In this document: in pieces, positions 10,105 through 41,281 of the stretch
Layout: each line of letters opens with the position of its first letter
Position numbering within the stretch: position 1 is the first letter of the stretch
Virus record (IMG/VR): IMGVR_UViG_3300020215_000037
Location: 1 to 41,281 of that record
Strand: one strand, 5' to 3'
DNA from: a virus
Length of the DNA: 41,281 bases
Position numbers and translations under genes: made by a program
The notes under the pieces: generated by a model
Databases searched by the model: none
What the model was told of the DNA's origin: nothing
Seen by the model: only the letters and a program-made list of their open reading frames with translations

Positions 10105-10108
10105 AAAT

Positions 10109-10276: not shown

Positions 10277-10280
10277 ACTC

Positions 10281-10514: not shown

Positions 10515-10879
10515 CGTTTTCCTTTCATGCGCTTGGGTTGGAGCTTGATACGCTCGCTATTGGCCATGAGCGTGTCGCACACTTTGTCCCAGTGCTTACG
10601 CTCGTTGAGCTTACAAATGGCGAACGATACCAATTTGCGAAGACGGGCGTTCGATTCTCCCAACTCCTTCACCTCTGCCCTTAGTCGTCTGTACTCGCCA
10701 AGGGACACGAGCATGTAGGGCTTTTCATCCAAAGCGTATTTATTCATCCAACGCTGAACATGATAATTAGCAGCCCATACCTTCACCGCACCACACGACT
10801 TAGAGGGCCTCTTTGTCAGAGGGCGTTTCAACTCTCCCCCTGCCTTCACCTTCAGCGCCTTCCCCTTACTCTTGCTCAT
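10511..10879 (-). CDS. Hypothetical basic protein (122 aa)
   Basis: ATGA-coupled at both ends. Confidence 0.5.
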   Translation of the reverse strand: MSKSKGKALKVKAGGELKRPLTKRPSKSCGAVKVWAANYHVQRWMNKYALDEKPYMLVSLGEYRRLRAEVKELGESNARLRKLVSFAICKLNERKHWDKVCDTLMANSERIKLQPKRMKGKR

Positions 10880-15963: not shown

Positions 15964-16099
15964 TGCGTCCGACGCAGAGAGAGATCCGAACACCGCCCCC
16001 CTGCTCGTGCGACGCGTTTTCTCGCAAAGGACTTGTTCTCCTCATTTTTCTGTTTTAAAGTCTCAACATGAAGCTGGGTCAAAAAACTACTCCAATTCG

Positions 16100-16771
16100 A
16101 TGTTACGTCCCGCCGAGAATCGTGAAAGACTTTGCTGGCGTGCGTGGCCGTGTCATGAATGTGGTAAGGGCCTCTCCCCAGTCAGTCACCTTATCGGATG
16201 TATTGACTCAGATAAGTCAGTTCGGACAGACAGCTTCGAAGTCAGGTGCAAAAAGCAGGTAGGCTGGCTCCAGAGATGGGTAGGTGAATGCCCCCATATC
16301 GGGGAGCATGTGCTCTCTTTAACAAAGGTCGGCGAAGGCTCTGAGCACAGGGTTTATGCGGACGATGCGCGAGCTAAAGTTTACAAGGCAACCTTGAGGA
16401 ATGTTTATGGAGACTGGTATTTTTTGGACGAAAATAATTTAGTCCATCAGGCTAGCTGCACGCCGATTGATTATCTCATTCGTTTGCATATTTGGGATAA
16501 ACTTTTCGGCTCTTTCCCAACGGCGCTCGGCATCACTGAGGCAGGTCAGATTGTCTCCATCCAGGACTTCATCCAGGGCGCAGAGCCAACACAGGAAGCT
16601 GTAGACGCTTTCCTGGAATCAGCAAACTTGACCCCAGTAAAAAAATCCCGATGGCTCTGGAAGCGCGATTACCCCGAAATCTCAGTGTGGGTAGGCGATG
16701 CACGGTGCGATAATTTTGTCACTACTGAGGCAGGGATCGCTCCGATTGATATTCGCCTTTGGTTTACTTAA
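16100..16771 (+). CDS. Atypical protein-kinase-like protein (polyvalent-protein kinase-like); N-terminus uncertain
   Basis: Motifs are VGEGSEHRVY (G-loop), AKVYKAT (Lys), DYLIRLHIWDKLFG, IVSIQDFIQGAEPT, VGDARCDNFV (catalytic-loop-like) and APIDIRL (metal-binding Asp). ORF 16068-16262 in another frame may supply the true N-terminus. Confidence 0.5.
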   Translation: MLRPAENRERLCWRAWPCHECGKGLSPVSHLIGCIDSDKSVRTDSFEVRCKKQVGWLQRWVGECPHIGEHVLSLTKVGEGSEHRVYADDARAKVYKATLRNVYGDWYFLDENNLVHQASCTPIDYLIRLHIWDKLFGSFPTALGITEAGQIVSIQDFIQGAEPTQEAVDAFLESANLTPVKKSRWLWKRDYPEISVWVGDARCDNFVTTEAGIAPIDIRLWFT

Positions 16772-23986: not shown

Positions 23987-26086
23987 ATGTCAGATACCCC
24001 CTCCGATGATTCAGCCAATACCATTATGGGAGATACTGAAGCTCCGAAGCAGAAATCTAAGAGGGGCGGATGGAGGCCGGGAGCGGGGAGGAAGAAGGCT
24101 GCGAGTAATAGGGTGGAAGGTGGTCAATCAAACAGCGCAGGAAATCAAACGGCTTTACGGGAATCAAAGGATTCGAATCAAAGTGCTGAATCAAAAGAAA
24201 TCAAAGGCAGCAAGATAGAGGCGGGTCAATTTGACGTAAGTCCAAATCAACATGGCGGCTCCGTTAGGCAACCATTATGCGAAGGGCGGGAGCAGACCCA
24301 CATCGGGGAGGAAGCCGAATCTTCAGCCGCGGCAGGAATCAGTCTTAGGGAAGCGCTTGGGAGCGACCTTGATGACGGCGAGCTTGATTGTGATGCGGTA
24401 TTTTATGGAGCAGGACAAACTCAGGGTGGCATCAGTGACAGACAAACCGACGGGAACCGAAACGAAGAAGACGGCGGAAGTTCCAGCCAAAGTTCAGGCG
24501 GCAATCGACCTTCTGAAGCATTACACGCTCAAGGCGGGGAGCGAAACGGAGGAAGCAGTATTAGTGGCTCAGAACACGCTCACGACGATCAATCTAGCTC
24601 AGGTAGTCAAAATGGTGGAGACGAGTCAGTTACTTCCGAGCAGCAACGGCAGCTCTTTGACCCCGGCGTCTACTGCTCCCTCTATTGTCGAGAACCGGGA
24701 AGCTGGCGTTACTCCCCGAAACAGCTTGAGTTCTTGCGTTCGTGTCGTGTCGTCGCAGAAGATTTAACGATTAAGCAGGATGACTTCCCTCGCAATATAG
24801 CTTTAGGCGCCGTCAACGGGGTGGGCAAGACCCAGATTATCGCCGATTTGATCCGTTATCTCATGGATACAATCCCTAATTGCGGGGTGGGTTTCACAAG
24901 TCACGTGCAGCGCCAATGTGAGATGTTGGAGAGGTATTTGCAGCAGCATCAACTACAGCCCCGTTTTGCCAATTGGAAATGCGTCTCAGGCAAGCTGGAG
25001 GAGCCCAATGGGAACTTTGCGCGGTGGTTTACCGCAAAGGATGTAGGTGCGGTGGAGTCACTTCATGCCCCCTTCATGGTTCGAATTCTGGATGAGGTTA
25101 AGTCCATGAAGGATGAAATTATTGACGCAACGAACCGTTGGCAGCCGAAGCTTACTATCTTCATATCTTCGAAGGGGCTCATGAGTGGGAGGTTTTACGA
25201 CTGCTTTACGCAGCTTCGACAGTTTTGGCGAACGTTTGAAATCAACGCCTATGATTGTCCATGGATTCCGGGCGCATGGATCGAGGAGCAAGTAGCCACG
25301 CACGGAATCAACTCAGCCCTCGTCAAATCCATGATTACCAACGAATTCTCAGACGTGGATCTTAGGGTTTTGATCACGATTGAAGCGGTTAACGAGATTT
25401 TAAGGCATGAGCCGCAATGGGAAGATGATAGGCAGATTGTTGCGGGCTTAGATGTGTCGGCGGCGAAACGTGATGGTGACGAGTGCGTTATGGTTCATCG
25501 GCAAGGTAATAAGGTCAAAGAGCCTTGGAGTTGCCCGCCTTCAGATAACGAAATGGAAGTTGTAGGACGGGTGATGAACCGGATTAGAGAAGTGAAGCCT
25601 CATCATCTCTTCATTGATCGGGGAGGCTCAGGCGGCCCTGTGGCTGCCCGTATTGCGGAGATCATTGCAGCGGAAAACGGCATTACAACGGTCCATCGCG
25701 TCGGATTCGGGGACAAAGCTAATGACGAGCGGAAATATGCCAGGAAAAACGCGGAAATGTACGGGGTGCTGTCGGCCAAGGTAACTGAGCGCAAGGTTAT
25801 CTTGCCCAACCACGCGAAGCTTATCGGCCAAATCACCTCTCGGCAGTATACGACGAATTCACAAGGGCAGATCGTACTCGAGAGCAAGGAAACCATGCGG
25901 AGACGCGGCGCTAAGTCTCCCGATTATGCGGACGCCCTTGTCATGTGCATGATGGAGCCTAATGCGGCATGGTCAGCGGTGCGAAAGACAAGGCAATGGT
26001 ACGACGATAGCCACGCCAAAGAGCTTAGGAATCGAAACACCAACGGCGTCGGGATGGTGGGCGGCAAATACTTAGGAAGAGGATGA
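23987..26086 (+). CDS. terL: Terminase large subunit (longest form; true start uncertain)
   Basis: Motifs are GAVNGVGKT (Walker A), MVRILDEVKS (Walker B) and GLDVSAAKRDGDECVMV. The nuclease-domain C-terminus reads SPDYADALVMCM. The first ~220 aa are G/S/N/Q/D/E-rich low complexity. Confidence 0.8.
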   Translation: MSDTPSDDSANTIMGDTEAPKQKSKRGGWRPGAGRKKAASNRVEGGQSNSAGNQTALRESKDSNQSAESKEIKGSKIEAGQFDVSPNQHGGSVRQPLCEGREQTHIGEEAESSAAAGISLREALGSDLDDGELDCDAVFYGAGQTQGGISDRQTDGNRNEEDGGSSSQSSGGNRPSEALHAQGGERNGGSSISGSEHAHDDQSSSGSQNGGDESVTSEQQRQLFDPGVYCSLYCREPGSWRYSPKQLEFLRSCRVVAEDLTIKQDDFPRNIALGAVNGVGKTQIIADLIRYLMDTIPNCGVGFTSHVQRQCEMLERYLQQHQLQPRFANWKCVSGKLEEPNGNFARWFTAKDVGAVESLHAPFMVRILDEVKSMKDEIIDATNRWQPKLTIFISSKGLMSGRFYDCFTQLRQFWRTFEINAYDCPWIPGAWIEEQVATHGINSALVKSMITNEFSDVDLRVLITIEAVNEILRHEPQWEDDRQIVAGLDVSAAKRDGDECVMVHRQGNKVKEPWSCPPSDNEMEVVGRVMNRIREVKPHHLFIDRGGSGGPVAARIAEIIAAENGITTVHRVGFGDKANDERKYARKNAEMYGVLSAKVTERKVILPNHAKLIGQITSRQYTTNSQGQIVLESKETMRRRGAKSPDYADALVMCMMEPNAAWSAVRKTRQWYDDSHAKELRNRNTNGVGMVGGKYLGRG
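24252..24767 (+). CDS. terS: Small-terminase-like ORF in the +1 frame inside the 5' part of the terL ORF
   Basis: The N-terminus MAAPLGNHYAKGGSRPTSGRKP resembles typical TerS N-termini. The rest has ordinary globular composition, unlike the overlapping terL-frame translation. Confidence 0.5.
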   Translation: MAAPLGNHYAKGGSRPTSGRKPNLQPRQESVLGKRLGATLMTASLIVMRYFMEQDKLRVASVTDKPTGTETKKTAEVPAKVQAAIDLLKHYTLKAGSETEEAVLVAQNTLTTINLAQVVKMVETSQLLPSSNGSSLTPASTAPSIVENREAGVTPRNSLSSCVRVVSSQKI

Positions 26087-26693: not shown

Positions 26694-28604
26694 ATGGCGT
26701 CGCTTACCAAAGGTAAATACAAGTCATACGATGAAACGATGGAGGCGTTAGACGCCCGTCGGGATTGGGAGAAGCGGATTGCTCAGCTTTACGCGCAGTA
26801 CTACGGGTTAGATCGGCCTGACCTCATGACTTATCCATGGCCAGGGGCGGCGAATCATCGCTATCTCTTGGCGCAGATGACGATCAGTCAGCAGTTGCCC
26901 ATTCGGAACAAGCTGATTCATTCGAGTAAGAATATCACGACCTTAATTGCTCGGAAGAAGGAATTGATTTCTAAGGCCCCCCTCCTCTCTGGCTACTTTG
27001 ATTTTTATACTAAGCAGCGGACCGACTTCGAGAGGCAGATTCAATATGCAGCATGGCAACAGATGCAGAATGGCCTCTGCATCATGAAGACCTTCTTTGA
27101 TTCCAAGAAAAAGAAAATCATCCATGAATCGATTCCAGCAATCTTCTTCATCGTCCCCTCAGATTGTCATGATGTGCATGAAAACCCTTGGTGTGCTCAT
27201 GTTCTGGAAAAATCGGAATCGTGGGTCAAAGAGAGGTTCGAAGAGACGGCTGACAAGGCGCGGCTTCAAGCGTTTCTAAAGAAACACGCAGATGGCACAG
27301 CTTCAGTCGAGGAATCCGACAGCGCGGACTCTGAGAAGCATAGCTATGACCGAATGGGGATTAGTCGCAGTAAGGCCAAGACTCGCTCCATCGTCCTTTG
27401 GGAGAAGCATTTTAAGGACAAGGATACGGGAAAGATGATGATGGAATACATCCTTCCCGATGATCCATCCCTGAAGCTTATTGAGCCCTTCGGATACCCA
27501 TACGAAAGCATGGTGAAGGCGGAGAAGTACATGTTTGAGGCTAGTAAGTACGAGGAGATCACCCCCCACTTCTACAGTTCCCAGGGAATCACGGAGAAGG
27601 CGACAGAGCTTGAATACTCGATTTCGGCCATGTGGCGAGCGCTCCTCAACACGTTGCAGCTCTACTCGAGCCCCGTGTTTTACCCGAACACACCGGATTC
27701 GATGCCGAGCACGACTCAGAACCTTGATTTTGAGCCCGGCTCCATCCTGCCCGGCGCCTTGACTAAGGTGGATATGGGAGAGGTTCCTGTTGAGTTCGTG
27801 GAACAAATCAACTTTCAGCGCGGGATCTTCGAGAGATGGGTAGGTTCCCCTGACTTCGGATTAGGCAAGGCAAACACGCTGGGAGAAGCCAGGACTGCCA
27901 CTGAAGTCAAAGCGATTGCCTTCCAGAATAACCTCAATTCCGAGTCGGAGCTCAACAACTGGAAAATGTTCATCGGCGGAATCATGAAGAAGCAGCTTGG
28001 CTTACTCAACGAGTTCAAGGAGCAAATCGACGAATGGTCTTTCATGACCAAGGAGGGATTTCAAGAGTTCGATAAGCAGTTCCTCTCTGAAGACTATTTC
28101 GTTGAAGTCAACGGCTCGGCGGACGCCCTCAACCGAGAAGCGCAGCTTAATAACGCCATTGCTCTCTTTAACCTCGGGATTTCGGCGAATCAGGCGCAGC
28201 CCAACACGGCCAATATCGTGGAGCTTTACAAGAACGTGGTTGAGAATTCCGAACCTGAGAGAGTCGAACGCTTCGTGATGCAGGATGGCCAGGCGCAGCT
28301 TGATTCCGCTCGTGATGCCTTGCAGGACATGACCAACGCCCTTGTGCATGGGAAGATTGTTCCAAAGCAAGGCGGAGATCCGATGGTCAAGGCTCAGGTA
28401 GCCGTCCAGACACTGCAAAAGCTCATGGCATCCGGCCAACAGCTTGAGCCGGAAAAACTAGCTCAAATCTCTGAGTATATCGCCGCAAACCGGGATCAGC
28501 TCAAACAGACCAATAAGCAAGGGTATGCCCAAATCACGGCAGAGTTAGACAAACTCGATCAGGCGGCACATGCAGCCGTCGGCGCTCAACTGGAGGCAGC
28601 ATGA
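26694..28604 (+). CDS. Portal protein (by size and position)
   Basis: A 636-aa ORF lying after terL and before the scaffold and capsid genes. No specific motif is claimed. Confidence 0.55.
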   Translation: MASLTKGKYKSYDETMEALDARRDWEKRIAQLYAQYYGLDRPDLMTYPWPGAANHRYLLAQMTISQQLPIRNKLIHSSKNITTLIARKKELISKAPLLSGYFDFYTKQRTDFERQIQYAAWQQMQNGLCIMKTFFDSKKKKIIHESIPAIFFIVPSDCHDVHENPWCAHVLEKSESWVKERFEETADKARLQAFLKKHADGTASVEESDSADSEKHSYDRMGISRSKAKTRSIVLWEKHFKDKDTGKMMMEYILPDDPSLKLIEPFGYPYESMVKAEKYMFEASKYEEITPHFYSSQGITEKATELEYSISAMWRALLNTLQLYSSPVFYPNTPDSMPSTTQNLDFEPGSILPGALTKVDMGEVPVEFVEQINFQRGIFERWVGSPDFGLGKANTLGEARTATEVKAIAFQNNLNSESELNNWKMFIGGIMKKQLGLLNEFKEQIDEWSFMTKEGFQEFDKQFLSEDYFVEVNGSADALNREAQLNNAIALFNLGISANQAQPNTANIVELYKNVVENSEPERVERFVMQDGQAQLDSARDALQDMTNALVHGKIVPKQGGDPMVKAQVAVQTLQKLMASGQQLEPEKLAQISEYIAANRDQLKQTNKQGYAQITAELDKLDQAAHAAVGAQLEAA

Positions 28605-29002: not shown

Positions 29003-29098
29003 TTTCGTTCTTTAACATATTTTTGCGGCAACGGAATAATTACCCGGATGCCGACAGAGCCTGAGCTATAAACTCGGGCGAGTAGCACAGCTTTTATA

Positions 29099-29133
29099 GG
29101 GCTGATTCTCCTAACGGAGGGTCAGCCCTTTTT
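29099..29133 (+). terminator. Rho-independent terminator-like hairpin plus T5
   Basis: GGGCTGA-TT-CTCC-TAAC-GGAG-GG-TCAGCCC followed by TTTTT, between gene 28601-29002 and the tRNA. Confidence 0.6.
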
Positions 29134-29145
29134 GTTGTGCGATAC

Positions 29146-29220
29146 CGCGGGATAGGAAAGGAGTAATCCGTCTGCCTCATAAGCAGAAGATCGCTGGTGC
29201 AAGTCCGGCTCCCGCAACCA
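29146..29220 (+). tRNA. tRNA-Met (anticodon CAT), initiator-like, CCA encoded
   Basis: Hand-folded cloverleaf: CGCGGGA TA GGAA AGGAGTA ATCC G TCTGC CTCATAA GCAGA AGATC GCTGG TGCAAGT CCGGC TCCCGCA A CCA. It has the C1xA72 mismatch and the CGCGGG.../...CCCGCAACCA ends seen in bacterial tRNA-fMet. Confidence 0.75.
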
Positions 29221-29327: not shown

Positions 29328-30251
29328 ATGGAAACTCAATTCAATACGTCGGATGCAGGCGGGTCAATCGATCTGCTTGAGAACGATGCAATCCAAAATG
29401 ATACCCCCGCGAATAACGGAGACGATCGCGGCGACTCCAATGAACCAAATAACAACCAATCTCAAACAGGAGATACGAAACAGGCCGATAGTGCGCCGAT
29501 TTCAAAGGTAGACGACAAGCAAAAAGACAATCAGAACCCTGACCAAAAACCAAAATTCCAAAGCAGAGGGGAGAGACGGGAGCAAGAAATCAAAACCATG
29601 CTCGCTGAAGTTAAGCGCGAGCGTGAGGAGTTCCGCAGGGAGCGCGAAACTTGGTCCCGCAACAGTCCTCAAAATCCCAACCAAAATCAGCCTCAAGAGC
29701 CTGTGTTTGTGGAGCAGCCTAAGAAGCCCACATGGACCCGGGAGCAACTTACTGCCGAGTACGCGAAAGCGAAGGCGGCGGGAGACGAGGTGACCATGCA
29801 GGCGGCTCAAAATGCCTTCGCTGAATGGGATAAGTACGAGACAGACCTGAAGTTTTGGAGGATGGAGAATGGTCAGAAGGTGGAGCGATTCAACACCGCT
29901 AGAAGGCAGAATTGGAATAAGGCACTGGAAAGATTTCCAGACCTTAAGAATGCCGATAGCGCGTTATATCGTGAGGCAAAGAGCCTCGCTCAACAGTTCC
30001 CTGAGGTGCTTCAGCGCATGTCAGGCGATGGGGAGTATCTGATTGCACAGCTTGCCGGGATGCGGATGGAACGCAGGAATCATACCTCTGAAGTCGGCGC
30101 ATTAAAGGAGCAGGTAAAGAAACTTACCGAGCAACTTAACTCGACGCAGAAACGAATTCAGCCCGCAAGTCAAGGCGCGGCTCCAGTGGTAGCGAAGCCC
30201 GGAGAGGGCAAAACGCCCTTGGAGAGACTCGAAGCAAAGCTCGCGGCATAG
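29328..30251 (+). CDS. Scaffolding protein (by position and composition)
   Basis: 307 aa, highly charged, with a Q/N/E/K-rich coiled coil. It lies immediately upstream of the capsid gene. Confidence 0.45.
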   Translation: METQFNTSDAGGSIDLLENDAIQNDTPANNGDDRGDSNEPNNNQSQTGDTKQADSAPISKVDDKQKDNQNPDQKPKFQSRGERREQEIKTMLAEVKREREEFRRERETWSRNSPQNPNQNQPQEPVFVEQPKKPTWTREQLTAEYAKAKAAGDEVTMQAAQNAFAEWDKYETDLKFWRMENGQKVERFNTARRQNWNKALERFPDLKNADSALYREAKSLAQQFPEVLQRMSGDGEYLIAQLAGMRMERRNHTSEVGALKEQVKKLTEQLNSTQKRIQPASQGAAPVVAKPGEGKTPLERLEAKLAA

Positions 30252-30298
30252 GATTCAGTTCGGCGGTGGGGTGTGCGCTCGGTTCAACCAAATAACAT

Positions 30299-31267
30299 AT
30301 GGCTAATGGTGAACTTAGTACAGACTTGGCGGCGATTCAGGATTATTTCACTGAATCGGCAATGGAAGAGCGGGAATATGATTCTCCTCTTCTGAAGATG
30401 GCGGATAAACCTACGATCCCTGAGGGTCGGAAGGATGTCATGCATGTCTTCCGATGGAGCAAATTAGGGTTTGCGGAGGATGTTGCGGAGGGAGTCGATC
30501 CCGCGACCGATGAGACAATGGCGATGACTGAGTACAAGGTAGAACTCACTGAGTTCTCTAAGGCTCTGAAAATCATCTACTACGCTGACAAACAGCGCCT
30601 CATCAAGAACGCGAAAGAGGCTTATGTCAAAATGCGCGAGCAGGCTGAACGCACTGCGAATCGCAGACTGACCACAGCTATCAACGCTGGAAGCTCGAGC
30701 GGCAATAACTCGTTTACACGCGCACAACGCATGTACGCGAACGGCAAAGACACCTTTGCGGCTCTTACCTCTGACGATTATCTGCGTGAAACAGATATTC
30801 AAGCGGCCATCAGCTACCTGATTAAGCAGGGGCACAAAGGACCGTATCACTGCATCATTAATCCTTGGAGCCGTCAGTCACTCTTTGAGTATGACTCCAG
30901 CTTTAGGGACTTCTCCAAACAAGCCGGTGGCAAGGAAATGCGCACTGGCAAGATTGGGGAATGGGGCGGTGCAACCATCCATCTCATGCACGAGCCCTTC
31001 CGTGAGACCGTCAACGGCACGGAAGACACGCGCGACGACAACGGCCAAATCGTAACCAACTACGTATTCGCCGAAGGGGATACCTACGCGGCCAGTCGAT
31101 TCGGCGGCACTGCAAAAAACGGGGGCTTCGCTCCTGAGTTCTGGATTAATCCATACCTCAGTAAGTCGAAAGCCTACTACTACATCTCCTACCGAATTCC
31201 ATTCGGCGGGATTGTGCTCGATCCAACCAAGATCGTGCAACTCAAAGCGCATTACAACAAGGCCTAA
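30299..31267 (+). CDS. Major capsid protein (HK97 fold, N4 gp56-like pattern)
   Basis: 322 aa. VFRWSKLGFAEDVAEGVDPATDETMAMTEYKVELTEFSKALKI fits the ..EG..P......v..t..e.....i.. pattern of that capsid family. It sits after the scaffold gene. Confidence 0.6.
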   Translation: MANGELSTDLAAIQDYFTESAMEEREYDSPLLKMADKPTIPEGRKDVMHVFRWSKLGFAEDVAEGVDPATDETMAMTEYKVELTEFSKALKIIYYADKQRLIKNAKEAYVKMREQAERTANRRLTTAINAGSSSGNNSFTRAQRMYANGKDTFAALTSDDYLRETDIQAAISYLIKQGHKGPYHCIINPWSRQSLFEYDSSFRDFSKQAGGKEMRTGKIGEWGGATIHLMHEPFRETVNGTEDTRDDNGQIVTNYVFAEGDTYAASRFGGTAKNGGFAPEFWINPYLSKSKAYYYISYRIPFGGIVLDPTKIVQLKAHYNKA

Positions 31268-31293: not shown

Positions 31294-31884
31294 ATGAAAA
31301 AGTATATCCTTGCAGTAATCGCGTTAGCTGTGGCGCTTGTGTTGCCTCTCCAGGCTGAGTACGTCAATTCGACGTTCTCCAGCTCTGCCGATGGCACCAC
31401 GTCTGCTACGGTGTTCGTCCCGAAAGGAAGTGGATTCGCTCACATTACCGACTTGTCCTATGACTTGGACTCGGCGGTAACTACTGGAACTGTGGACATC
31501 CGGGCGGCTGAGTCGGAGCAATCCATTGCTTCGGCGACGTCGGGAACTGGTACGGTTCTGTGGTTCGATAATGATCCGACTCATGTGTCAGCACAAGAGT
31601 ATGTGATCTTTTTCGATGAAAGTGCCAATGCGTACTTCCTGTACAAATGCACAGCGACGGCGGCGGCTTCGATCACCATTCAGGAGACTGCACCTATTAC
31701 GACTACCTCGGATAAGGTGTATCCCTTGAAAGCCACGGCGCGACGCCATGCAGTCAATGTGATATCAGGCTCCCTCGGGTCCGCTGATATCTGGCTCCCG
31801 TCAGACCTGCCTTCAGCGCTGACGATCGACGGCAATACGACCTCCTGCCGAATCAGCATCAACGGCGTCAAAATCCGAAACTAA
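31294..31884 (+). CDS. Beta-rich protein with Sec-signal-like N-terminus
   Basis: MKKYILAVIALAVALVLPLQA|EY. The rest is Ser/Thr/Ala-rich. Confidence 0.55.
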   Translation: MKKYILAVIALAVALVLPLQAEYVNSTFSSSADGTTSATVFVPKGSGFAHITDLSYDLDSAVTTGTVDIRAAESEQSIASATSGTGTVLWFDNDPTHVSAQEYVIFFDESANAYFLYKCTATAAASITIQETAPITTTSDKVYPLKATARRHAVNVISGSLGSADIWLPSDLPSALTIDGNTTSCRISINGVKIRN

Positions 31885-31944
31885 GGGGTTAATGGGGAGA
31901 GCGGGGAAGGTTCGATTCCTTCTCCGCTCTTTCACTATTTCATT

Positions 31945-32397
31945 ATGAAACGATTTCTTATCGCGGTTCTTTGCCTTGTTGTGGGGATTGCTTCCGCTCA
32001 AGGGCCTGAATCCTTCAGCCTGACCCCGAGCGTAACCTCTCTTGCCGCCAACAGCACCAATTCGACGGCGGGAACGGTTAAGAAGCTTGCCGACGGTGAA
32101 AACAATGTTCGTATCTATCTGACTGCAACAGGGGGCGCGGCGACCACGAACGGGACGCTTGTTGTTAAGTTCATTACTGCAAGCGGTTCGGGGGACACAA
32201 CAAACACCTTTGACACTGCCAGCCTAAGCGAAATCAAGCTCACGATGAGCAGCCTTGGAGCCAATACGTATACTATCAGCGACCGCTTTGTCTTGAGCGG
32301 GGCCAAGTACATCAAGGTAGGGCAAATCGAGAACACGTTTGCGGGCGCTGCAAGTAATTTCGTCATCACGGTTGGCTATCCACTAAAGGACCAATGA
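31945..32397 (+). CDS. Beta-rich protein with Sec-signal-like N-terminus
   Basis: MKRFLIAVLCLVVGIASA|QG. Confidence 0.55.
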   Translation: MKRFLIAVLCLVVGIASAQGPESFSLTPSVTSLAANSTNSTAGTVKKLADGENNVRIYLTATGGAATTNGTLVVKFITASGSGDTTNTFDTASLSEIKLTMSSLGANTYTISDRFVLSGAKYIKVGQIENTFAGAASNFVITVGYPLKDQ

Positions 32398-33173
32398 AAA
32401 TCCCCTCTAAATACGTTTGGCTCGCGCTCTGCCTTGTGGCCTGCGTGTCGTTTGCTGCCTCGGTGAGTGATTTACAGACGGTAGACGGGGAGCAGCGCAA
32501 CAAGGTCCAGGCCATCATTGACACTGAGACTGACGGGATGGTGACGACCACGAGCGGGGATTCTCGGTATGTGAATACTTCGGGCGATACCATGACAGGG
32601 GCTTTGACGATTTCAAACGCGCTTAATATCACTTCAGGTACAACCACGAATGAAACAGCGGTCTTGAACTATCCGGGACTCCGCACGCATTTTACTCCTC
32701 GGCAAATTACGCAACTAAGAGCGGTTTCGGTCAATGCGGGAGCGGTTATTGGAGGCTCCTATTCTCTCCTCGGGACTACGGGGTCTATTCGCTTCCCTGA
32801 AACCGGAGGTAGTCCTTATTACCAATTAGGAATGTCGCTCAATTTTACCCCAGGGCGAAACTATCGGGTCATTTCTACCTTCAGCTACGAAACCAACTAC
32901 ATCAATACTGCCGGGGCTTACGACATTCTCTTCGAGTATCTCTACTCCACCAATCGGCAAGTTGGGGGCTATGTAACGGTTGATTCTTTTTGTCCAACCA
33001 CAATTGCGACCAACAGCACCGGGGGGTCTTTTGTGTGGACAAACACGGTCGTTGTGCCTTCCACGCCTACCTATGGCTTTGAAATTTACATGCTTCGAGC
33101 CACTGCATCCGGAACAGATACCGCTGTAGGTGGACTCTCTGAGGATAAACAAGTCATCGAGGAGATTAAATAA
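32394..33173 (+). CDS. Fibre-like protein with signal/lipobox-like N-terminus
   Basis: MKIPSKYVWLALCLVAC (LVA|C lipobox-like). DSRYVNTSGDTMTGALTI resembles a common tail-fibre motif. Confidence 0.5.
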   Translation: MKIPSKYVWLALCLVACVSFAASVSDLQTVDGEQRNKVQAIIDTETDGMVTTTSGDSRYVNTSGDTMTGALTISNALNITSGTTTNETAVLNYPGLRTHFTPRQITQLRAVSVNAGAVIGGSYSLLGTTGSIRFPETGGSPYYQLGMSLNFTPGRNYRVISTFSYETNYINTAGAYDILFEYLYSTNRQVGGYVTVDSFCPTTIATNSTGGSFVWTNTVVVPSTPTYGFEIYMLRATASGTDTAVGGLSEDKQVIEEIK

Positions 33174-33174
33174 C

Positions 33175-33495
33175 ATGAAAACGTTTTTATTCGTTATGGC
33201 CGGGATTCTTACTTTTTCAGCTGTTACTCTTTCCGCGCAAAAGGCAACAGATGCGCGGGCGTCAAACCCGCCTGTAAATATTAAGGCGCAAGAGGCTCAA
33301 ACTGACTCACGCCCCGTCGCAGTGAGAGATGTTGAGGACAGGCACGACTTTACGAAACTTAAAGCTTTGAAAGCACAAGCGATAGGAGTTGGTGGAGCGG
33401 TAGATCAAGCGGCCCTCGTTGCTTATCTTGAAAACCTCATACTCCTTTCCAAGACCTGCGACCCAAAGCACGTCCTCAAAGAGGTGAATAAGTAA
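33175..33495 (+). CDS. Small protein with Sec-signal-like N-terminus (106 aa)
   Basis: ATG 33175. The N-terminus is MKTFLFVMAGILTFSAVTLSA|QK. Confidence 0.5.
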   Translation: MKTFLFVMAGILTFSAVTLSAQKATDARASNPPVNIKAQEAQTDSRPVAVRDVEDRHDFTKLKALKAQAIGVGGAVDQAALVAYLENLILLSKTCDPKHVLKEVNK

Positions 33496-33498
33496 CTC

Positions 33499-33783
33499 AT
33501 GGAACCTCACCCACAAGGTCCAAGCGAGATCATCGACTTAAAAATCCCTCGCATCCGGTTTACGCCAAAAGTTGCTTTTTGGATGATTACTGGATTGGGG
33601 ACCTTGGGAGTAACTGCTTTCTGGCAGTACAGCGATACGCACAACGCGGAGAAGTTTCTGCCAAGGGCTGAGTATCAGAAAGACCAGGATGCAAGAGCTG
33701 AGTTTCAGAAATCACTCAAAGAGGACGTGAAAGAGATTAAGCAGGACTTAAAAGACTTCATGAAGGAGCAACGCAAGCAATGA
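33499..33783 (+). CDS. Single-TM protein, holin-like candidate
   Basis: TM segment VAFWMITGLGTLGVTAFWQY, followed by a charged C-terminal tail. It precedes the hydrolase gene. Confidence 0.35.
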   Translation: MEPHPQGPSEIIDLKIPRIRFTPKVAFWMITGLGTLGVTAFWQYSDTHNAEKFLPRAEYQKDQDARAEFQKSLKEDVKEIKQDLKDFMKEQRKQ

Positions 33784-33968
33784 TCTGGCTCAAATCCATC
33801 ATGTCCTGGCTCAAGCAGGGCAAGGTTGCCCGATGGGAATCCTCGGACAAAGAGCTTTCCCGTGAGATGGGCGGGGCTCCTCGCGTGGGCTCATTCAGTG
33901 AGCAAAGCGGAGACGGGGAGAAGTACAAGGGTATCAAGATCACTCTTCCACTGCCGGAGAAGCGATGA
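33780..33968 (+). CDS. Hypothetical protein (62 aa)
   Basis: ATGA-coupled at both ends. Confidence 0.4.
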   Translation: MIWLKSIMSWLKQGKVARWESSDKELSREMGGAPRVGSFSEQSGDGEKYKGIKITLPLPEKR

Positions 33969-34570
33969 AACCTCATTACGTCCTAGTAAATGGGATTCGG
34001 ACTAATCCCAATGATGTGAATGGGTGGACGGATCACGCTGAAGAGTGGCTAGAGGATTATGGTTACTCGGCCACGAAGTACGAATACTTTTGCACAAGCG
34101 TTTTTCGATGGGTGAGGCAGCCTTCCCGCTCTCGTAGCGTGGCAGAGATCATCAAGCGTTCGGTGAAGCCTGTTGTGTATGTGGGGCATTCCAACGGATG
34201 TGAGATTCTCGCCAAGATTTTTAGGGAAGACAAGATGGTCAGGATCAAGGACGCCCATCTCTTTGCCCCGGCGGTAGATCCTGATTTTGACGCGAACGGC
34301 TTCAATAAGGCTTTCCGGGATGGACGCATTGAGCGGCTCTTTATTTACGGCAGCAAAGCGGATCATACGCTGAGGATTGGGAATAAACTTACTGGATGGC
34401 TGCGCTTTATCGGCATGGGTTATGGGCACCTTGGATATGAAGGGCCTCGAAATCAATCAGGAGCGGCCATTCTCAGGACTTACGTGCATTGGCAGAACGA
34501 ATTCGCGCACAGCGATTGGTTCAAGCCTCACAATTTTGAAAAGTCCATGAACTTGACGGTGAGGAAATGA
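33965..34570 (+). CDS. Alpha/beta-hydrolase-fold serine esterase/lipase-like protein
   Basis: Nucleophile elbow VVYVGHSNGCEI (G-x-S-x-G). Downstream candidates are Asp (GSKADHT) and His (GYGHLGY). Confidence 0.5.
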   Translation: MKPHYVLVNGIRTNPNDVNGWTDHAEEWLEDYGYSATKYEYFCTSVFRWVRQPSRSRSVAEIIKRSVKPVVYVGHSNGCEILAKIFREDKMVRIKDAHLFAPAVDPDFDANGFNKAFRDGRIERLFIYGSKADHTLRIGNKLTGWLRFIGMGYGHLGYEGPRNQSGAAILRTYVHWQNEFAHSDWFKPHNFEKSMNLTVRK

Positions 34571-34573
34571 GTC

Positions 34574-34708
34574 ATGAGACGCAAAAACAAACCCAATTTT
34601 GGGCGACGAGCAAAAGGGATGGTTCATCAAATTACTTTTAACGCCCTTCTCTTACTCCTCGCCCCTCTCGCTTACCTCTTAACACCAACAGAAGACTATG
34701 AATCCTGA
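34574..34708 (+). CDS. 44-aa basic-N-terminus, single-TM micro-protein (not in the ORF track)
   Basis: Hand translation: MRRKNKPNFGRRAKGMVHQITFNALLLLLAPLAYLLTPTEDYES. Confidence 0.35.
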   Translation: MRRKNKPNFGRRAKGMVHQITFNALLLLLAPLAYLLTPTEDYES

Positions 34709-34717
34709 AAGAAACTT

Positions 34718-34951
34718 ATGATCAACAAACCTAACTGCATTCAAATCCCCGAAGCCCTGAAGGGCCAACTTGAGCCCGAAGGGGAGCTTGAAATCTCCTA
34801 CCGACTCACAGGCGAAGAAGGCAATCAATCCCTCGAAATTACAGGGATTGAAGGCGAGCCCGTTGCTAGCGAGCCCGAAAGCCCAATGTCCCGCATGAAA
34901 AGCCGCATGGGCTACAAAGAGGACGAAATGGATGCGCCGAATATTGCTTAA
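34718..34951 (+). CDS. Acidic small protein (77 aa)
   Basis: Glu/Gly-rich, in late-operon phase. Confidence 0.4.
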   Translation: MINKPNCIQIPEALKGQLEPEGELEISYRLTGEEGNQSLEITGIEGEPVASEPESPMSRMKSRMGYKEDEMDAPNIA

Positions 34952-34955
34952 CTGA

Positions 34956-35678
34956 ATGAGTGATACGCTCGCACAGATGTCGTTGAAGGTGCTTCGCAAC
35001 GCGAAGATTCCCAACAACAACAGTACGCCCGCAAATAATGCGATTACTGATATCAAGCAATATCTTAATCAGCGGGCGAAAAGCGTCTGGGCGCGGCGAT
35101 TATTCCGAGAGTATATCATCCTTGGTTCGAAGTCGGTTTTGGCGTCCATAAAGACGATCACTCTCGGGAGCATCACGATTGAGTCAGGTTTCGATACGGA
35201 TGGAAGAGGGCGTGATGCGGCGTTCTACGAGATCGGAGCCGTAAGAGAGGGCGACAATCCCTTATTGCCTGAGGATATCGGAGCAATTAACAGCGTAGAT
35301 CCTGGTATATGGGCTTCGACGACCGCGCCGGTGCATTTCATCAATCGCGGGCAGAGCGGAATTCATCTCTTGGGAGCCTACAGCGCAAATACCACGCTTA
35401 GCTTCTGGGGGAAGGCTGGCTTTCAGGATCTAGCGGATGCGGAGACGTGGATCTTGGGAGATTCTGATGCGCTGATCGAGGGCGCCACTGCCGATATGTA
35501 CACGTACTGGTGGGAAGATCATGCCACGGCGATGAAGCATGAGGCGAAGTTCGAGAATGCCATCAAGCTCCTTGTGGATGCCCAAGAGGTTCAGGGCGCA
35601 TCGAAGCGAAGGATTATCCCGAAGATGCAAATCGGGCTTTCGTCTCAAGTGAGCTACACGAGCAAGACCGGCGTTTAA
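34956..35678 (+). CDS. Virion structural protein (adaptor/tail candidate)
   Basis: Assigned by position only. Confidence 0.35.
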   Translation: MSDTLAQMSLKVLRNAKIPNNNSTPANNAITDIKQYLNQRAKSVWARRLFREYIILGSKSVLASIKTITLGSITIESGFDTDGRGRDAAFYEIGAVREGDNPLLPEDIGAINSVDPGIWASTTAPVHFINRGQSGIHLLGAYSANTTLSFWGKAGFQDLADAETWILGDSDALIEGATADMYTYWWEDHATAMKHEAKFENAIKLLVDAQEVQGASKRRIIPKMQIGLSSQVSYTSKTGV

Positions 35679-35681
35679 GCC

Positions 35682-37229
35682 ATGCCTGAATACCCCACAG
35701 TCACCTTAAAGTCATTCTCTGGAGGCCAGAGGGATCGGGATCACCCCTCCGAACTCTTGGAGAATCAATATAGCTATGGGCGAAATATTGAGATTCGCTC
35801 GGGAGGGCTTTTTGATAACCGCCGGGGAAGGACTAAAAAAGTCAACTCTCCCGGCGCAAATCCTCAAGGAGCGTGCTGGTTTAGCCCAAGCCCCTCCTCT
35901 TTCTTCGTGATTGAGGTCAATGGAGGCAGGATTTTCAAATGGGAGGGAAGCGCGGCCACGTTCACGGAGATTGACCCTTCTGTTCAGCTTGCGAATACCT
36001 CAAGCCCCGTTTCGTTTGGGATTCTGAATGGGGTCCTCTTCATTTTCTCTGGAAACGCGGATAACGTGCGCTCGTGGGATGGTTCGGCAGCCACGTTGAC
36101 GGATGAGGCCAATACCAACACAGATCCCCCTCTCACGTCAGTGGTAGGGACTCAGGCTAGTAAATTGTTGGCAGGGAAAACCGACACGGCGGGAACTGAT
36201 GATTTTATCTACGTCTCAAGTGTCAATGACGGAAAGACATGGGATAGGACGAATAATAATCGTCGACTTCCAAGTAAGGGAAATGAGGGGCTAACAGCTA
36301 TAGCAATGTACCGCAATGGGACGATTCTCGCGTTCACGAGGAAGACGGCGCATGAGATTGATGTTTCTCCATCTGCGGTAAGTGATTGGACGAGGAACAC
36401 TTTAGACACGGAAATCGGCAGCATTTCGCCATGGGTGACCGTGGTCGGGGATGACGCTTTTTTTATGTCGGCGGACGGACATATCCGGTCCATCAAGCGC
36501 ACGCAATTTGATAAGGCGTTCGGAGTTTCTCAGCCCATTACTTATTGGAATCCCAACCTCGTTGAGAGGATTAAGAAAACCAAGCTAAGCAATACTCGCG
36601 GGGCTTGGTTTGATAATTACCTTCTTGTGGGGGCTTGCCTTGATAACTCCAATTACAACAACGGAGTGATTGTCTTCGACATGCTGCACCAGATTCAAAG
36701 CCCGTCGGGGTTGATTCCTGTCTGCGTGGGAGAGTGGGATAATATGCGGCCTGGGGAATGGATTGTAACGAACTTCAACAGCCGAGAGCAGCTTTACTAC
36801 ATGGACGCTCTCGATGGGGCGCTATATCAGATGTTTTCGGGCGAGGATGATGACGGAGAGACTATTGATTCGGAGGTTCATATGCGCTCGCTGGATTTTG
36901 GAACCCAGAGGCATGACAAGACGGTCCTCGATGGGGAATTGCAGGTTTTGGACACCTACGGAGATGTGACGATCTCCTACGCAAAGGACGACGGGGCCTT
37001 TTCCGAGCTTCAGGAAGAAGCGGTGGGTTCAAGCGGAGCCTCTCTGCCCTTCACTTTGCCTGTAACGCTTGGCTCTGGCGGGGTGCTCGACTTTATTCCG
37101 CTCAGTTTTTACGGCCTTGGCCAGAGTCGATTCTGGCAGCCGAAGATTGAGCACACAAATGGGCTGCTATCGCTTAAGCAGATCACTTTGAGGGCCAAGG
37201 TTCACAACGCTTTAACGAGAGGCTATTAG
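35682..37229 (+). CDS. Virion structural protein (515 aa; tail/nozzle candidate)
   Basis: Assigned by position and size only. Confidence 0.35.
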   Translation: MPEYPTVTLKSFSGGQRDRDHPSELLENQYSYGRNIEIRSGGLFDNRRGRTKKVNSPGANPQGACWFSPSPSSFFVIEVNGGRIFKWEGSAATFTEIDPSVQLANTSSPVSFGILNGVLFIFSGNADNVRSWDGSAATLTDEANTNTDPPLTSVVGTQASKLLAGKTDTAGTDDFIYVSSVNDGKTWDRTNNNRRLPSKGNEGLTAIAMYRNGTILAFTRKTAHEIDVSPSAVSDWTRNTLDTEIGSISPWVTVVGDDAFFMSADGHIRSIKRTQFDKAFGVSQPITYWNPNLVERIKKTKLSNTRGAWFDNYLLVGACLDNSNYNNGVIVFDMLHQIQSPSGLIPVCVGEWDNMRPGEWIVTNFNSREQLYYMDALDGALYQMFSGEDDDGETIDSEVHMRSLDFGTQRHDKTVLDGELQVLDTYGDVTISYAKDDGAFSELQEEAVGSSGASLPFTLPVTLGSGGVLDFIPLSFYGLGQSRFWQPKIEHTNGLLSLKQITLRAKVHNALTRGY

Positions 37230-37230
37230 G

Positions 37231-38175
37231 ATGAATGAGAATAGAAAAACGATGTTTTTGTATGTGTTCCTCGGAGCAATCCTAGGTGGGTTTTTGGCTT
37301 CATGGACGCTCGTGCCAACACCCTCTGTTGACGCGGCTACGGTGACCTCGGGGGTTGCCTTCACGACAAATCAAGTCGTGCAGCATACGCACCTCAACAA
37401 CGCCATTAATAACGCAACGGTTTCCGATATCGTTTCGGGAGATATCACGGATGGAACGATTGCGGCGGCGGACCTTGCGGCTAATTCAGTGACAAGCGTC
37501 AAAATCTTGGATGCAACTGTTACCGGAAGCGATATCGGCTCAAGGACTATCGCGGCTTCTAATATCCAAACGAATGGAGTCACAGAGATCGAGCTTGCAA
37601 CAAATATTACTCTACGTGCAGGAACTTGGAATTTTACGAGCGCCACAGTCACGGCAAATTCGATTGCATCCACAGCCGTAAGCGGTACGACGACGACAGC
37701 CGGGGCAGGGGATAGCGGCAAAATCCCTAAGCTCGATTCTGACGGGAAGCTTGCGGATTCAATGATTCGCGGGAGTTCGCTTCTTAGCTCAAATCGCGCA
37801 AGTGTGGTTTCGTCAGCTTCTGGCTACACATGGACGACGGTAGCATCTCTTACGACGACAGCCACAAACGGAACTGTCATTATTTCTGGGCGGGCTTTGG
37901 CGGCAGTTGGCGATGCTGGAAATACCTTCTTAAGAATTCGCGACGCCTCTTCAAGTGTGACGGCTTCCATAGCCGGCACAGGCTTAGGGGGCGGGAATGC
38001 AACCCCATTTAGCTGCACGCTTACTGATAGCCTTTCGGGCAGCGCCAAAACGTACACCTTTGAACTGGCGAATTCCGGAACAAGCGTTACTTACACCAAT
38101 GCGGCAGCTACAGGCGTTGGCGGAGTGAGTGCGCAGGCCAATCACCTAGGAATGACTCTCATTCAAAACCCATGA
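37231..38175 (+). CDS. Tail-fibre-like protein with hydrophobic signal/anchor-like N-terminus
   Basis: N-terminus MNENRKTMFLYVFLGAILGGFLASWTLVPTPSVDA|A. Repetitive segment DITDGTIAAADLAANSVTSVKILDATVTGSDIGSRTIAASNIQTNGVTEIEL. GDSGKIPKLDSDGKLADSMI resembles a common fibre motif. Confidence 0.5.
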   Translation: MNENRKTMFLYVFLGAILGGFLASWTLVPTPSVDAATVTSGVAFTTNQVVQHTHLNNAINNATVSDIVSGDITDGTIAAADLAANSVTSVKILDATVTGSDIGSRTIAASNIQTNGVTEIELATNITLRAGTWNFTSATVTANSIASTAVSGTTTTAGAGDSGKIPKLDSDGKLADSMIRGSSLLSSNRASVVSSASGYTWTTVASLTTTATNGTVIISGRALAAVGDAGNTFLRIRDASSSVTASIAGTGLGGGNATPFSCTLTDSLSGSAKTYTFELANSGTSVTYTNAAATGVGGVSAQANHLGMTLIQNP

Positions 38176-40737: not shown

Positions 40738-41281
40738 ATGGGAACGAGAGAAGAAACGCTTTTGCGGGTTCGAGAGAAATATCCTCAGTATAAGGATATC
40801 CCAGACGACGACCTAGCAAACGCCCTGATCTCAAAATATCCTCAATACAAAGAAGCTCTATCGGCTCCAGCCGCACACGTTTCGACAACTGGGACAGATT
40901 CACCCGCCACTGATCGAGGAGGTCTTGATAAGCCAGTTTCACGAGAAGAGGCAAAGCGGATCGCACAGGAGAGAATGGTTGCGCGAGATCCGGGCCGATT
41001 AATCATGCTCAACAAAGGGCAGGCTGATCAAAATGTAGGCGTGAAAGGACAAGGCGCCATTCCGAGAGCTTTAGCGGCAACTGTTGGCGGAGGGTTCACA
41101 TCGGGGCCTGCCCGCATTATTCAGGATCTCTTGCTTAGAGCTAAATTAACGACTCCTGAGGCGGTTGACGCTCTTGGCGTAAATCGGGTTTCTGAAGAGA
41201 ACCCAGGAACCACATTGGCCGGGAATCTGGCCGGGGGCATCATTCCTGCCGGGAAGGTTTTTCAAGGGGCTTCGGCTCTTA
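40738..41281 (+). CDS. 5' part of the ~696-aa wrap-around gene (continues at 1-1674)
   Basis: ATG 40738 lies 2 nt after the preceding stop. The frame is open to the window end and in phase with 1-1674 through the 127-nt overlap. Confidence 0.7.
   Translation, partial: MGTREETLLRVREKYPQYKDIPDDDLANALISKYPQYKEALSAPAAHVSTTGTDSPATDRGGLDKPVSREEAKRIAQERMVARDPGRLIMLNKGQADQNVGVKGQGAIPRALAATVGGGFTSGPARIIQDLLLRAKLTTPEAVDALGVNRVSEENPGTTLAGNLAGGIIPAGKVFQGASAL
41155..41281. repeat. Terminal direct repeat, identical to 1-127
   Basis: 127/127 identity read directly. Confidence 0.95.

Follow-up and report, generated by a model that had tools for sequence, protein, structure and literature searches.

Putative Sec export signals on a conserved block of late proteins in an uncultured podovirus lineage

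The IMG/VR virus record IMGVR_UViG_3300020215_000037 (41,281 nucleotides, analysed over its full length and called the window below) carries four consecutive genes right after its putative major capsid gene, here named ORF1 to ORF4 (31294-33495), and a fifth, fibre-like gene at 37231, whose products all begin with an N-terminus of the Sec signal type. These N-termini had been noticed in a first-pass annotation made from the DNA letters. All five ORFs and their N-termini were recovered as described, each with the n-, h- and c-region organization of a Sec signal. From the sequence features and their conservation we consider it highly probable that they are genuine, working Sec signals, and comparison with related contigs supports the view that the genes form a conserved late-gene module of an uncultured podovirus lineage. 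The explanation that we prefer for this module is that its products are virion surface or adsorption proteins which mature outside the cytoplasm and join the particles at lysis; we hold it tentatively, at somewhat less than even confidence. The signal-bearing genes are the following (bar, predicted cleavage site):

31294-31884, plus strand: ORF1, 196 aa, N-terminus MKKYILAVIALAVALVLPLQA|EY; predicted signal residues 1-21 (nt 31294-31356, LQA|EY), then an all-beta domain
31945-32397, plus strand: ORF2, 150 aa, N-terminus MKRFLIAVLCLVVGIASA|QG; predicted signal residues 1-18 (nt 31945-31998, ASA|QG), then a predicted jelly-roll
32394-33173, plus strand: ORF3, 259 aa, start overlapping the ORF2 stop; predicted signal with lipobox LVA|C, residues 14-17 (nt 32394-32441)
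33175-33495, plus strand: ORF4, 106 aa, no recognisable domain; predicted signal residues 1-21 (nt 33175-33237, LSA|QK)
37231-38175, plus strand: fibre-like protein, 314 aa; hydrophobic N-terminal extension residues 1-35 (nt 37231-37335), ending ...PSVDA|ATVTSG

Sec-type N-termini of five late proteins

The basic n-region described in the first-pass annotation is present in all five proteins, with a net charge of at least +1, and also in nearly all homologues with a scorable signal (47 of 49 in the ORF1 family, 64 of 65 in the ORF2 family and 11 of 11 in the fibre family). It is followed by a hydrophobic core whose best 10-residue Kyte-Doolittle mean lies between 2.45 and 3.56, compared with about 2 or less in the other late structural proteins. 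Mean core lengths per family are 15-17 residues, and the h-regions are short in ORF1, ORF2 and ORF4 (about 12-17 residues) and about 21 residues long in the fibre-like protein. The AxA-like c-region was likewise found again, with small residues at positions -3 and -1 in LQA|E (ORF1), ASA|Q (ORF2), LSA|Q (ORF4) and VDA|A (fibre). In their primary sequences ORF1, ORF2 and ORF4 look like signal peptidase I substrates.

All putative gene products were scored with a heuristic written for this analysis, which asks for a net-positive n-region, an uncharged run with a strongly hydrophobic 7-mer, and, immediately behind the core, either a (-3,-1) site or a lipobox. Seven of the 51 putative window genes are flagged as encoding a signal peptide or a lipoprotein. 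These include all five proteins under study, and the other two (1726-2136 on the minus strand and the lipoprotein gene at 15478-15963 on the plus strand) lie outside the late operon. The heuristic flags 1.0% of 10,200 composition-preserving shuffles of the window proteins, 1.8-3.7% of shuffles of the five proteins themselves and 7 of 132 spurious out-of-frame ORFs, so that its false-positive rate over the control sequences is 1-5%. At this rate four neighbouring hits would occur by chance with a probability of the order of 1e-6, and the cluster is therefore far beyond chance. No match to Type IX secretion C-terminal domains or other sorting signals was obtained for the five proteins in an NCBIfam scan.

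The remark that export signals are unexpected in the morphogenesis genes of a tailed phage is in line with the literature: typical phage genomes encode 0-2 predicted signal peptides (PMC5723332), and we found no published precedent for a tail fibre or decoration protein with a Sec signal in tailed phages.

Conservation of the signals in homologues

The first-pass annotation had suggested to look whether homologues in related phages keep the hydrophobic N-termini, and the outcome is strongly positive. The ORF1 family comprises 52 homologues of about 190-205 aa each on contigs of up to 41 kb. A signal consisting of a basic n-region, a hydrophobic core and a small-x-small site is found in 49 of 51 homologues, which are 37-72% identical, and the residues in this region vary; both exceptions appear truncated at the 5' end. 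For ORF2 an exhaustive HMMER search gave 82 cluster representatives, and 68 of the 69 that could be aligned (26-52% identity) carry the signal. In the fibre family the hydrophobic extension precedes the conserved A-T-x-T-x-G start in 14 of 15 homologues, and it is 28-35 residues long in the three homologues measured.

Comparing the window with its relative L001, the fibre proteins are 40% identical in the signal region and 75% in the following 100 residues, and the ORF1 proteins are 52% identical in the signal region and 69% in the mature part. The property is kept while the sequence drifts, as in real signal peptides, which argues that these are real ones. A signal-less isoform is unlikely, because ORF1 has no internal methionine and the fibre has no conserved internal start near the cleavage site (a methionine lies there in just 2 of 14 fibre homologues).

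Domain organization of the signal-bearing proteins

ORF1 starts 27 nt past the stop of the capsid gene. Its AlphaFold2 model (pLDDT 88.8) shows a helix at residues 2-15 followed by 13 strands that form a beta-sandwich, for which neither the PDB nor BFVD gave a convincing match (TM-score at most 0.37). The motif D179-G-N-T-T-x-C185 (nt 31828-31848) is invariant. The gap between ORF1 and ORF2 is filled by one further element:

31895..31933, plus strand: GC-rich hairpin of 16 pairs

Hairpins of differing sequence also stand right after the ORF1 stop in L001 (about 6995-7030), L007 (about 10588-10617) and L010 (about 10622-10650), and the element is likely a terminator, an attenuator or an RNA-stabilising stem. 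Placed one gene past the capsid gene, it would put ORF1 into the high-expression group of the capsid and leave the downstream genes to read-through; co-expression of ORF1 and capsid is inferred from the adjacency of the two genes and the conserved hairpin. In L002 two tandem ORF1 paralogues, both signal-bearing, directly follow the capsid gene (9350-10597), and L003 has two genes at 9390-10618 which match this pair in size and position. ORF1 and ORF2 were also considered as spanins. This was ruled out, as both are beta-sandwich proteins and the relatives have separate lipoprotein pairs further downstream.

The AlphaFold2 model of ORF2 is a jelly-roll (pLDDT 92.7). Its nearest folds in the PDB are the TNF-like lectins BC2L-C and PLTL, CBM16, CBM6 and C1q, with TM-scores of 0.38-0.47; at this level the modelled likeness to lectin and carbohydrate-binding module (CBM) jelly-rolls is a resemblance and not a membership. 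A match of ORF2 to P0113, a giant cadherin-like protein, is best explained by T/G/A-rich composition.

Fibre-like motifs had been noted in two of the five proteins, ORF3 and the protein encoded at 37231, and a fibre-like character is upheld for both, for ORF3 by its weak tail-fibre PHROG matches. The motif GDTMTGALTI was located at residues 64-73 of ORF3 (nt 32583-32612). Around GDTMTG, at residues 26-113, ORF3 matches seven PHROG families, six of which are tail-fibre or minor-tail families; the matches are weak (best E-value 2.7e-06). Searches of ORF3 and of the nozzle protein against PDB sequences gave no meaningful match. Following the signal, ORF3 carries the motif VDGEQRNKV (nt 32481-32507), and its C-terminal domain is variable. 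The proteins of the ORF3 type share just the sequence Q-x-[IVL]-D-G-E-Q-R-x-K after the signal, in one or two copies; their C-terminal domains are of an unassigned type in the window and L010 and of the Laminin_G_3 type in L001 and L007. In L013 the protein at the ORF3 position (6111-7487) has an IU_nuc_hydro-like domain (PF01156, 30 bits, below the cut-off of 34.2 bits); an inosine-uridine nucleoside-hydrolase-like domain is odd for a protein at a fibre position.

The lipobox proposed for ORF3 stands in part. L-V-A-C is present in the window, and the protein may be a signal peptidase II lipoprotein in this phage; L001, L007, L010 and L013 have no lipobox at this position. All four keep a hydrophobic signal-like N-terminus, which in L013 has no basic n-region. 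ORF4 starts at the ATG after the ORF3 stop, a GTG at 33130 being an unlikely alternative start. The genes at the ORF4 position in L001 (111 aa), L007 (119 aa) and L010 (119 aa) are also signal-bearing; no similarity of their sequences to ORF4 was evident by inspection.

The fibre-like gene follows the nozzle gene in all loci. Its second motif, GKIPKLDSDGKL, was found at residues 163-174 (nt 37717-37752), and the conserved mature start reads ATVTSGVAFTTNQ (nt 37336-37374). The protein contains repeats of about 11 residues. Across the family the N-terminal 170 or so residues are conserved and followed by at least two C-terminal types. The 314-aa protein gave no match in PHROG, Pfam, NCBIfam or the PDB, and a search with the fibre profile against the PDB returned nothing meaningful. 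Its N-terminus looks like a long signal or a signal-anchor. In a by-eye comparison with signal-arrest-release (SAR) domains, whose Gly-, Ala- and Ser-rich segment can leave the bilayer, the N-terminal segment is G/A/S-rich in the window (GAILGGFLAS) and L001 (GALFGSFVAS), and several homologues are not.

The one fibre without a signal is that of L002. It begins with M-ATLTAG, in register with the predicted mature end of the window protein (VDA|ATVTSG), and because its ATG lies 4 nt past the nozzle stop there is no room for an extension. A signal-less fibre that starts at the mature residue implies that the destination of this protein can be reached from either side of the membrane.

Synteny, relatives and host

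The position right after the capsid gene and inside the morphogenesis operon was upheld, the capsid call being based on a weak phrog_1357 match and on position. Seven further contigs share the order portal, scaffold, capsid, ORF1-type gene, variable block, adaptor, nozzle and fibre, and the order capsid, ORF1, ORF2, ORF3-type and ORF4-type is kept in L001, L007 and L010. The capsid protein has a 92% identical homologue in L001 and is preceded by portal-like and scaffold-like genes in all relatives. In L010, whose ORF1 is 38% identical, all four post-capsid genes are signal-bearing and are followed by lysis-type genes, adaptor, nozzle and a signal-bearing fibre. Six probable signal-bearing proteins are encoded in the variable block of L007 (ORF1 61% identical); one is homologous to ORF2, one has a Laminin_G_3 domain and one, of 472 aa, contains AAPLTNG(F/Y) repeats. 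L013, to which a remote homologue of ORF2 led, has capsid, ORF1-like, ORF2-like and ORF3-type genes, the products of the first two after the capsid with canonical signals. ORF2 to ORF4 are missing from L002 and L003, where the pair of post-capsid genes runs straight into the lysis cassette.

Neither megablast with the late-region DNA nor tblastn with the capsid protein revealed a cultured relative among GenBank phages. Of two scans of genome contigs one gave no match; the other, over 185,579 reference genomes, gave a single match, L006 (JAHFJM010000007.1, 9,057 bases), in a groundwater metagenome-assembled genome of Candidatus Peribacteria, a member of the candidate phyla radiation (CPR); it is probably a mis-binned phage contig, or else a weak hint at the host. 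The only GenBank relatives of the nozzle protein are in three metagenomic podoviruses from Manatee Spring, to whose 'phage stabilization protein' it is 29% identical. In one of these, L011 (MW202524.1, 1-6880), glycosyltransferase, hyaluronan-synthase-like and methyltransferase annotations stand just upstream of the tail genes, a gene run that recalls virion-glycosylation cassettes.

Further hints at a host were weighed and set aside. The best matches of the terminase are to Akkermansia phages (25-29%), but Chambord, the one among them whose annotation was consulted, is a long-tailed prophage with a tape measure, and its structural module is of another kind. The missing Shine-Dalgarno sequences and the glutamine at +1 in three of the six signal peptidase I-type sites of the window would fit a Bacteroidota host, yet glutamine at +1 amounts to about 20% family-wide as against about 71% in Bacteroidota, and because of this low share we make no host call. 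The Bacteroidota O-glycosylation motif, counted by eye, is not above expectation.

Genome organization and neighbouring genes

The first 127 bases of the window (1-127) are identical to the last 127 (41155-41281). From this terminal repeat the genome is complete, either circular or terminally redundant, with a length of about 41.15 kb (~41,154 bp). Judged from its genes the phage is a P22/SU10-like podovirus with a separate scaffold; the early genes include an ERF recombinase, a helicase and a Toprim protein. The other features of the late operon are:

23987-26086, plus strand: terminase large subunit (phrog_2)
26694-28604, plus strand: portal-sized protein (weak match plus synteny)
between the portal gene and tRNA-Met, plus strand: 133-aa ORF of the head module
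29146-29220: tRNA-Met (CAT), inside the head module between the 133-aa ORF and the scaffold gene
29328-30251, plus strand: scaffold-like protein (weak match plus synteny)
30299-31267, plus strand: putative major capsid protein, 322 aa (weak phrog_1357 'major head protein' match plus position)
33499..34951, plus strand: putative lysis-type cassette, directly after the four signal-bearing genes
34956-35678, plus strand: tail adaptor, 240 aa (PF24175 SU10_adaptor, 27.5 bits against a cut-off of 27)
35682-37229, plus strand: nozzle or hub protein, 515 aa (the L002 homologue carries PF11134 Phage_stabilise)
downstream of the fibre gene, plus strand: four internal or ejection-like proteins, including the next entry
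40738 to 1674, spanning the junction: last of these four, a Gly-rich ORF of about 696 aa, probably an internal or ejection protein

The head module thus consists of portal, 133-aa ORF, scaffold and capsid, and no prohead protease gene was found in the window. A terminator-like hairpin of 14 pairs lies upstream of the tRNA gene at 29098-29129. Most late genes, the capsid gene included, have A/T-rich leaders without a recognisable Shine-Dalgarno sequence in the 25 nt upstream (e.g. 30274-30298, 31920-31944, 33150-33174). The GC content of the signal-bearing genes equals that of the whole genome, which is uniform. ORF2 and ORF3 overlap by ATGA, as do two downstream pairs (starts at 33780 and 33965), and the junctions of ORF3 with ORF4 and of ORF4 with the next gene have a spacing of 1-3 nt. 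Across the four-gene block there is no room for a promoter, the hairpin in the ORF1-ORF2 gap being the sole intergenic element.

The lysis-type cassette, which gave a weak 'hol-like' PHROG match, consists of five genes:

33499-33783, plus strand: 94-aa protein with one transmembrane (TM) segment
33780-33968, plus strand: 62-aa ORF
33965-34570, plus strand: 201-aa alpha/beta-hydrolase-like protein with a GHSNG nucleophile elbow (sub-threshold matches to Ser_hydrolase and DUF900)
34574-34708, plus strand: 44-aa TM peptide
34718-34951, plus strand: acidic 77-aa protein

At the cassette position L010 encodes holin-like TM proteins, two lipoproteins and a VanY peptidase, and L002 encodes TM proteins and lipoproteins. 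No peptidoglycan hydrolase was recognised anywhere in the window; the GHSNG protein, encoded where L010 has its VanY peptidase, may be an unusual lysis enzyme.

Outside the late operon, four genes for putative envelope proteins were found:

1726-2136, minus strand: 136-aa signal-peptide protein
2360-3424, minus strand: 354-aa membrane protein with a Wzy_C (O-antigen ligase) domain (E-value 7.8e-16)
3576-4175, minus strand: membrane-anchored CBM_4_9/BppA-like carbohydrate-binding protein
15478-15963, plus strand: lipoprotein of the CC0125/CC1285 family (NF047637, E-value 1.4e-19)

The minus-strand block 1726-4175 resembles lysogenic conversion genes. The Wzy_C family also covers protein O-oligosaccharyltransferases, and the Wzy_C protein raises the tentative idea that the exported phage proteins may be glycosylated. 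Homologues of the CC0125-type lipoprotein occur on plasmids of many Proteobacteria, and its gene is overlapped, on the downstream side, by that of a 287-aa protein with a near-threshold Kinase-PolyVal match (15478-16771 for the pair).

Possible destinations of the exported proteins

According to the explanation that we prefer, the five proteins would cross the cytoplasmic membrane late in infection. The exported set would comprise a tail fibre, a short fibre whose tips can be exchanged, and a lectin-like decoration of head or tail, all of which would fold in the periplasm. The DNA-filled particle, built in the cytoplasm, would then be bound just when holin holes or lysis mix the two compartments. 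Signal cleavage would expose the A-T-x-T end, the same end that the L002 fibre would obtain by removal of its methionine, and docking would probably take place through this free N-terminus. Passage through the envelope might allow periplasmic modification, set the timing, or serve a second job in masking receptors. For modification, the membrane protein with the Wzy_C domain (2360-3424, minus strand) and the sequon-like D-G-N-T-T of the invariant ORF1 motif could be pertinent. A disulfide rationale for the export was rejected, since a conserved cysteine pair is absent.

Several observations are consistent with this explanation. Large holin lesions connect cytoplasm and periplasm while the outer membrane is still intact, and in other phages finished particles can take up fibres and decoration proteins in vitro. 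The fibre and the ORF3-type proteins combine a conserved N-terminal module with swapped C-terminal domains, which is the architecture of receptor-binding proteins. The exported set is probably made up of fibre-like and glycan-binding modules, and no candidate for a signal-less fibre or spike was found in the complete genome. ORF1 moreover stands next to the capsid gene and appears to be co-expressed with it, as would be expected of a capsid decoration protein. Of the three explanations offered in the first-pass annotation, membrane-associated assembly of the adsorption apparatus, here placed outside the cytoplasm, appears to fit the comparative data best. That a whole lineage of tailed phages completes its particles outside the cytoplasm, by Sec export, processing by signal peptidase, perhaps periplasmic modification, and docking after holin lesions have formed, is a wider claim, which we regard as possible and on balance unlikely.

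A number of points weigh against such a role in the particle. To our knowledge no tailed phage adds structural proteins outside the cytoplasm, so that the prior is low. The five proteins are candidate particle components, and the envelope type of the host is a presumed one. Known decoration proteins are absent among the PDB and BFVD matches of ORF1 and the PDB matches of ORF2, and neither the sequences nor the alignments contain a conserved cysteine pair in the mature parts. In 3-4 of 13 fibre homologues the alignment reads P or N at position -3, which breaks the -3 rule and makes signal peptidase I processing less certain in the fibre than in ORF1, ORF2 and ORF4. The fibre gene stands where the genes of the channel-plugging needles are found, gp18 in SU10 (PMC9509320) and gp26 in P22. 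Such a plug would need to be added in the cytoplasm to retain the DNA. SU10 gp10, whose gene follows the capsid gene and whose product is predicted to be a beta-sandwich, is absent from the virion map (PMC9509320). Finally, the adjacency to the lysis cassette would suit an envelope-directed role outside the virion equally well.

Such a role is the content of another explanation, which we take seriously and still consider rather unlikely. Here the products would be exported late envelope proteins that never become part of the virion and that, as lectin-like and fibre-like binders delivered to the periplasm or set free at lysis, mask or modify a glycan receptor on the infected cell and its debris, much as T5 Llp or Cor would do if the receptor were an abundant polysaccharide, or that assist or time lysis; the true receptor-binding function would then reside in the nozzle or in an unrecognised protein. 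The canonical and conserved signals would be expected, the genes adjoin the lysis cassette in every relative, and glycan-binding folds recur in the jelly-roll of ORF2, in the Laminin_G_3 domains of ORF3-type proteins and in the membrane-anchored CBM_4_9 protein elsewhere in the genome. If ORF1 is highly expressed, as the hairpin implies, this would be in keeping with a very abundant receptor. The case of SU10 gp10, absent from the virion map (PMC9509320), points the same way, and phages of Porphyromonas gingivalis are reported to encode signal-peptide proteins thought to alter the envelope (PMC10367356). However, the virion would be left without a recognisable fibre or spike in a complete genome, and the signal-less fibre of L002, at the canonical position and starting at the mature residue, fits poorly with a function that depends on export. 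The receptor-masking proteins known so far are moreover small lipoproteins or products of early genes, and not five co-ordinated late proteins of the fibre type.

The hydrophobic N-termini could also remain uncleaved and unexported, as structural elements of virion proteins assembled in the cytoplasm, which would concern mainly the fibre; as an account of the module we regard this as improbable. The N-terminus of a fibre or needle would plug the nozzle channel and later enter the host membrane at DNA delivery, or, in another form, the segments would keep the proteins attached to the cytoplasmic side of the membrane up to the time of assembly. The h-region of the fibre, with about 21 residues, is long enough for a membrane-spanning segment, several homologues violate the -3 rule in the c-region, the fibre gene is at the needle position of P22-like and SU10-like tails, and hydrophobic segments occur in tape-measure and ejection proteins of other phages. 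But ORF1, ORF2 and ORF4 have the short h-regions and AxA sites typical of cleaved signals, with a basic n-region ahead of the core the C-terminal domain is expected to be translocated, the segment is missing altogether from the L002 fibre, and its sequence is barely conserved, which is unexpected for a specific structural contact. The uncleaved anchors buried in the particle, proposed in the first-pass annotation, are therefore unlikely for ORF1 and ORF2, with their short h-regions and canonical AxA sites, and possible for the fibre.

Very improbable, in our view, is an origin as morons or lysogenic-conversion genes, by which secreted proteins would be expressed from the prophage and coat the surface of the lysogen. 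The phage group does have temperate traits (the ERF recombinase of the window, a faint integrase match in L010), the minus-strand block 1726-4175 is conversion-like, and lom of lambda is an exported protein encoded among late genes. On the other hand ORF1 and ORF2 are found at the same position in relatives down to 26-38% identity, the genes overlap or abut without promoter room and with only the hairpin between them, their GC content matches the genome, and the fibre belongs to the core tail-module genes. Because the late genes are translationally coupled and lack promoter room, the exclusion proteins coating the lysogen are the weakest of the three explanations offered at the outset.

The question matters since assembly of tailed phages is taught as purely cytoplasmic, and here every fibre-like or lectin-like candidate adsorption protein has a conserved secretion signal. 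If the proteins are on the particle, there would be an assembly step in the envelope, with fibre attachment tied to lysis and virion proteins open to periplasmic modification; this would be an extracytoplasmic step in the morphogenesis of Caudoviricetes that has not been described previously. If they are not virion parts, several kilobases of the late operon would be devoted to exported glycan-binding proteins, a large undescribed class of envelope effectors. Either outcome would change the annotation of signal peptides in phage structural modules, where they tend to be written off as lysis genes, morons or mistakes of the predictor.

Comparison with known systems

Virion proteins that the host machinery initially places in, or moves through, the cytoplasmic membrane are known from pIII and pVIII of Ff phages and from the membrane proteins of PRD1. 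Ff and PRD1, however, assemble at or around a membrane, whereas the phage described here has an HK97-type capsid module, portal, scaffold, terminase and a podovirus tail. The tail-fibre-like adhesins PblA and PblB of Streptococcus mitis phage SM1 end up on the bacterial surface; in contrast to the proteins of the window they lack a signal peptide and reach the cell wall by rebinding after phage lysis has set them free.

Further functional analogues are T5 Llp and the Cor proteins of phi80, T1 and N15, receptor-masking lipoproteins that are phage-encoded, use Sec, reside in the envelope and are encoded near adsorption genes. Their presumed role is protection from superinfection and from the loss of progeny to cell debris. 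They differ in being single small lipoproteins without fibre or lectin architecture, whereas the window encodes five late proteins, four of them non-lipoproteins and one a fibre orthologue; no sequence match to T5 Llp or Cor appeared among the PHROG, Pfam and NCBIfam results for the five proteins.

Exported lysis proteins such as Sec-signal and SAR endolysins, the T4 antiholin RI and spanins are late Sec-dependent proteins as well, with genes inside or next to the lysis cassette. ORF1 to ORF4 and the fibre show no hydrolase, antiholin or spanin features, and the relatives carry separate holin, lipoprotein and VanY genes. The signal of T4 RI is reported to be cleavable (PMC8385771).

SU10 gp10 of the genus Kuravirus shares with ORF1 the post-capsid position and a predicted Ig-like beta-sandwich, and the SU10-type adaptor is common to both phages; the excerpted SU10 text mentions no signal peptide (PMC9509320), and we saw no match between gp10 and ORF1 in sequence or fold. 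The phages of P. gingivalis (Nixviridae; Matrishin et al. 2023) encode proteins of unassigned function with signal peptidase I signals, some with glutamine at +1, that are discussed as users of the general secretion system of the host (PMC10367356), and these proteins are also mentioned in PMC10653852. Their genes are described as scattered and not as a conserved block of the head-tail operon; the proteins are credited with changes to the outer membrane, and they do not include a tail fibre. Phage-encoded exported proteins are thus a known kind, but in none of these systems do five late proteins, a tail-fibre orthologue among them, form a conserved block.

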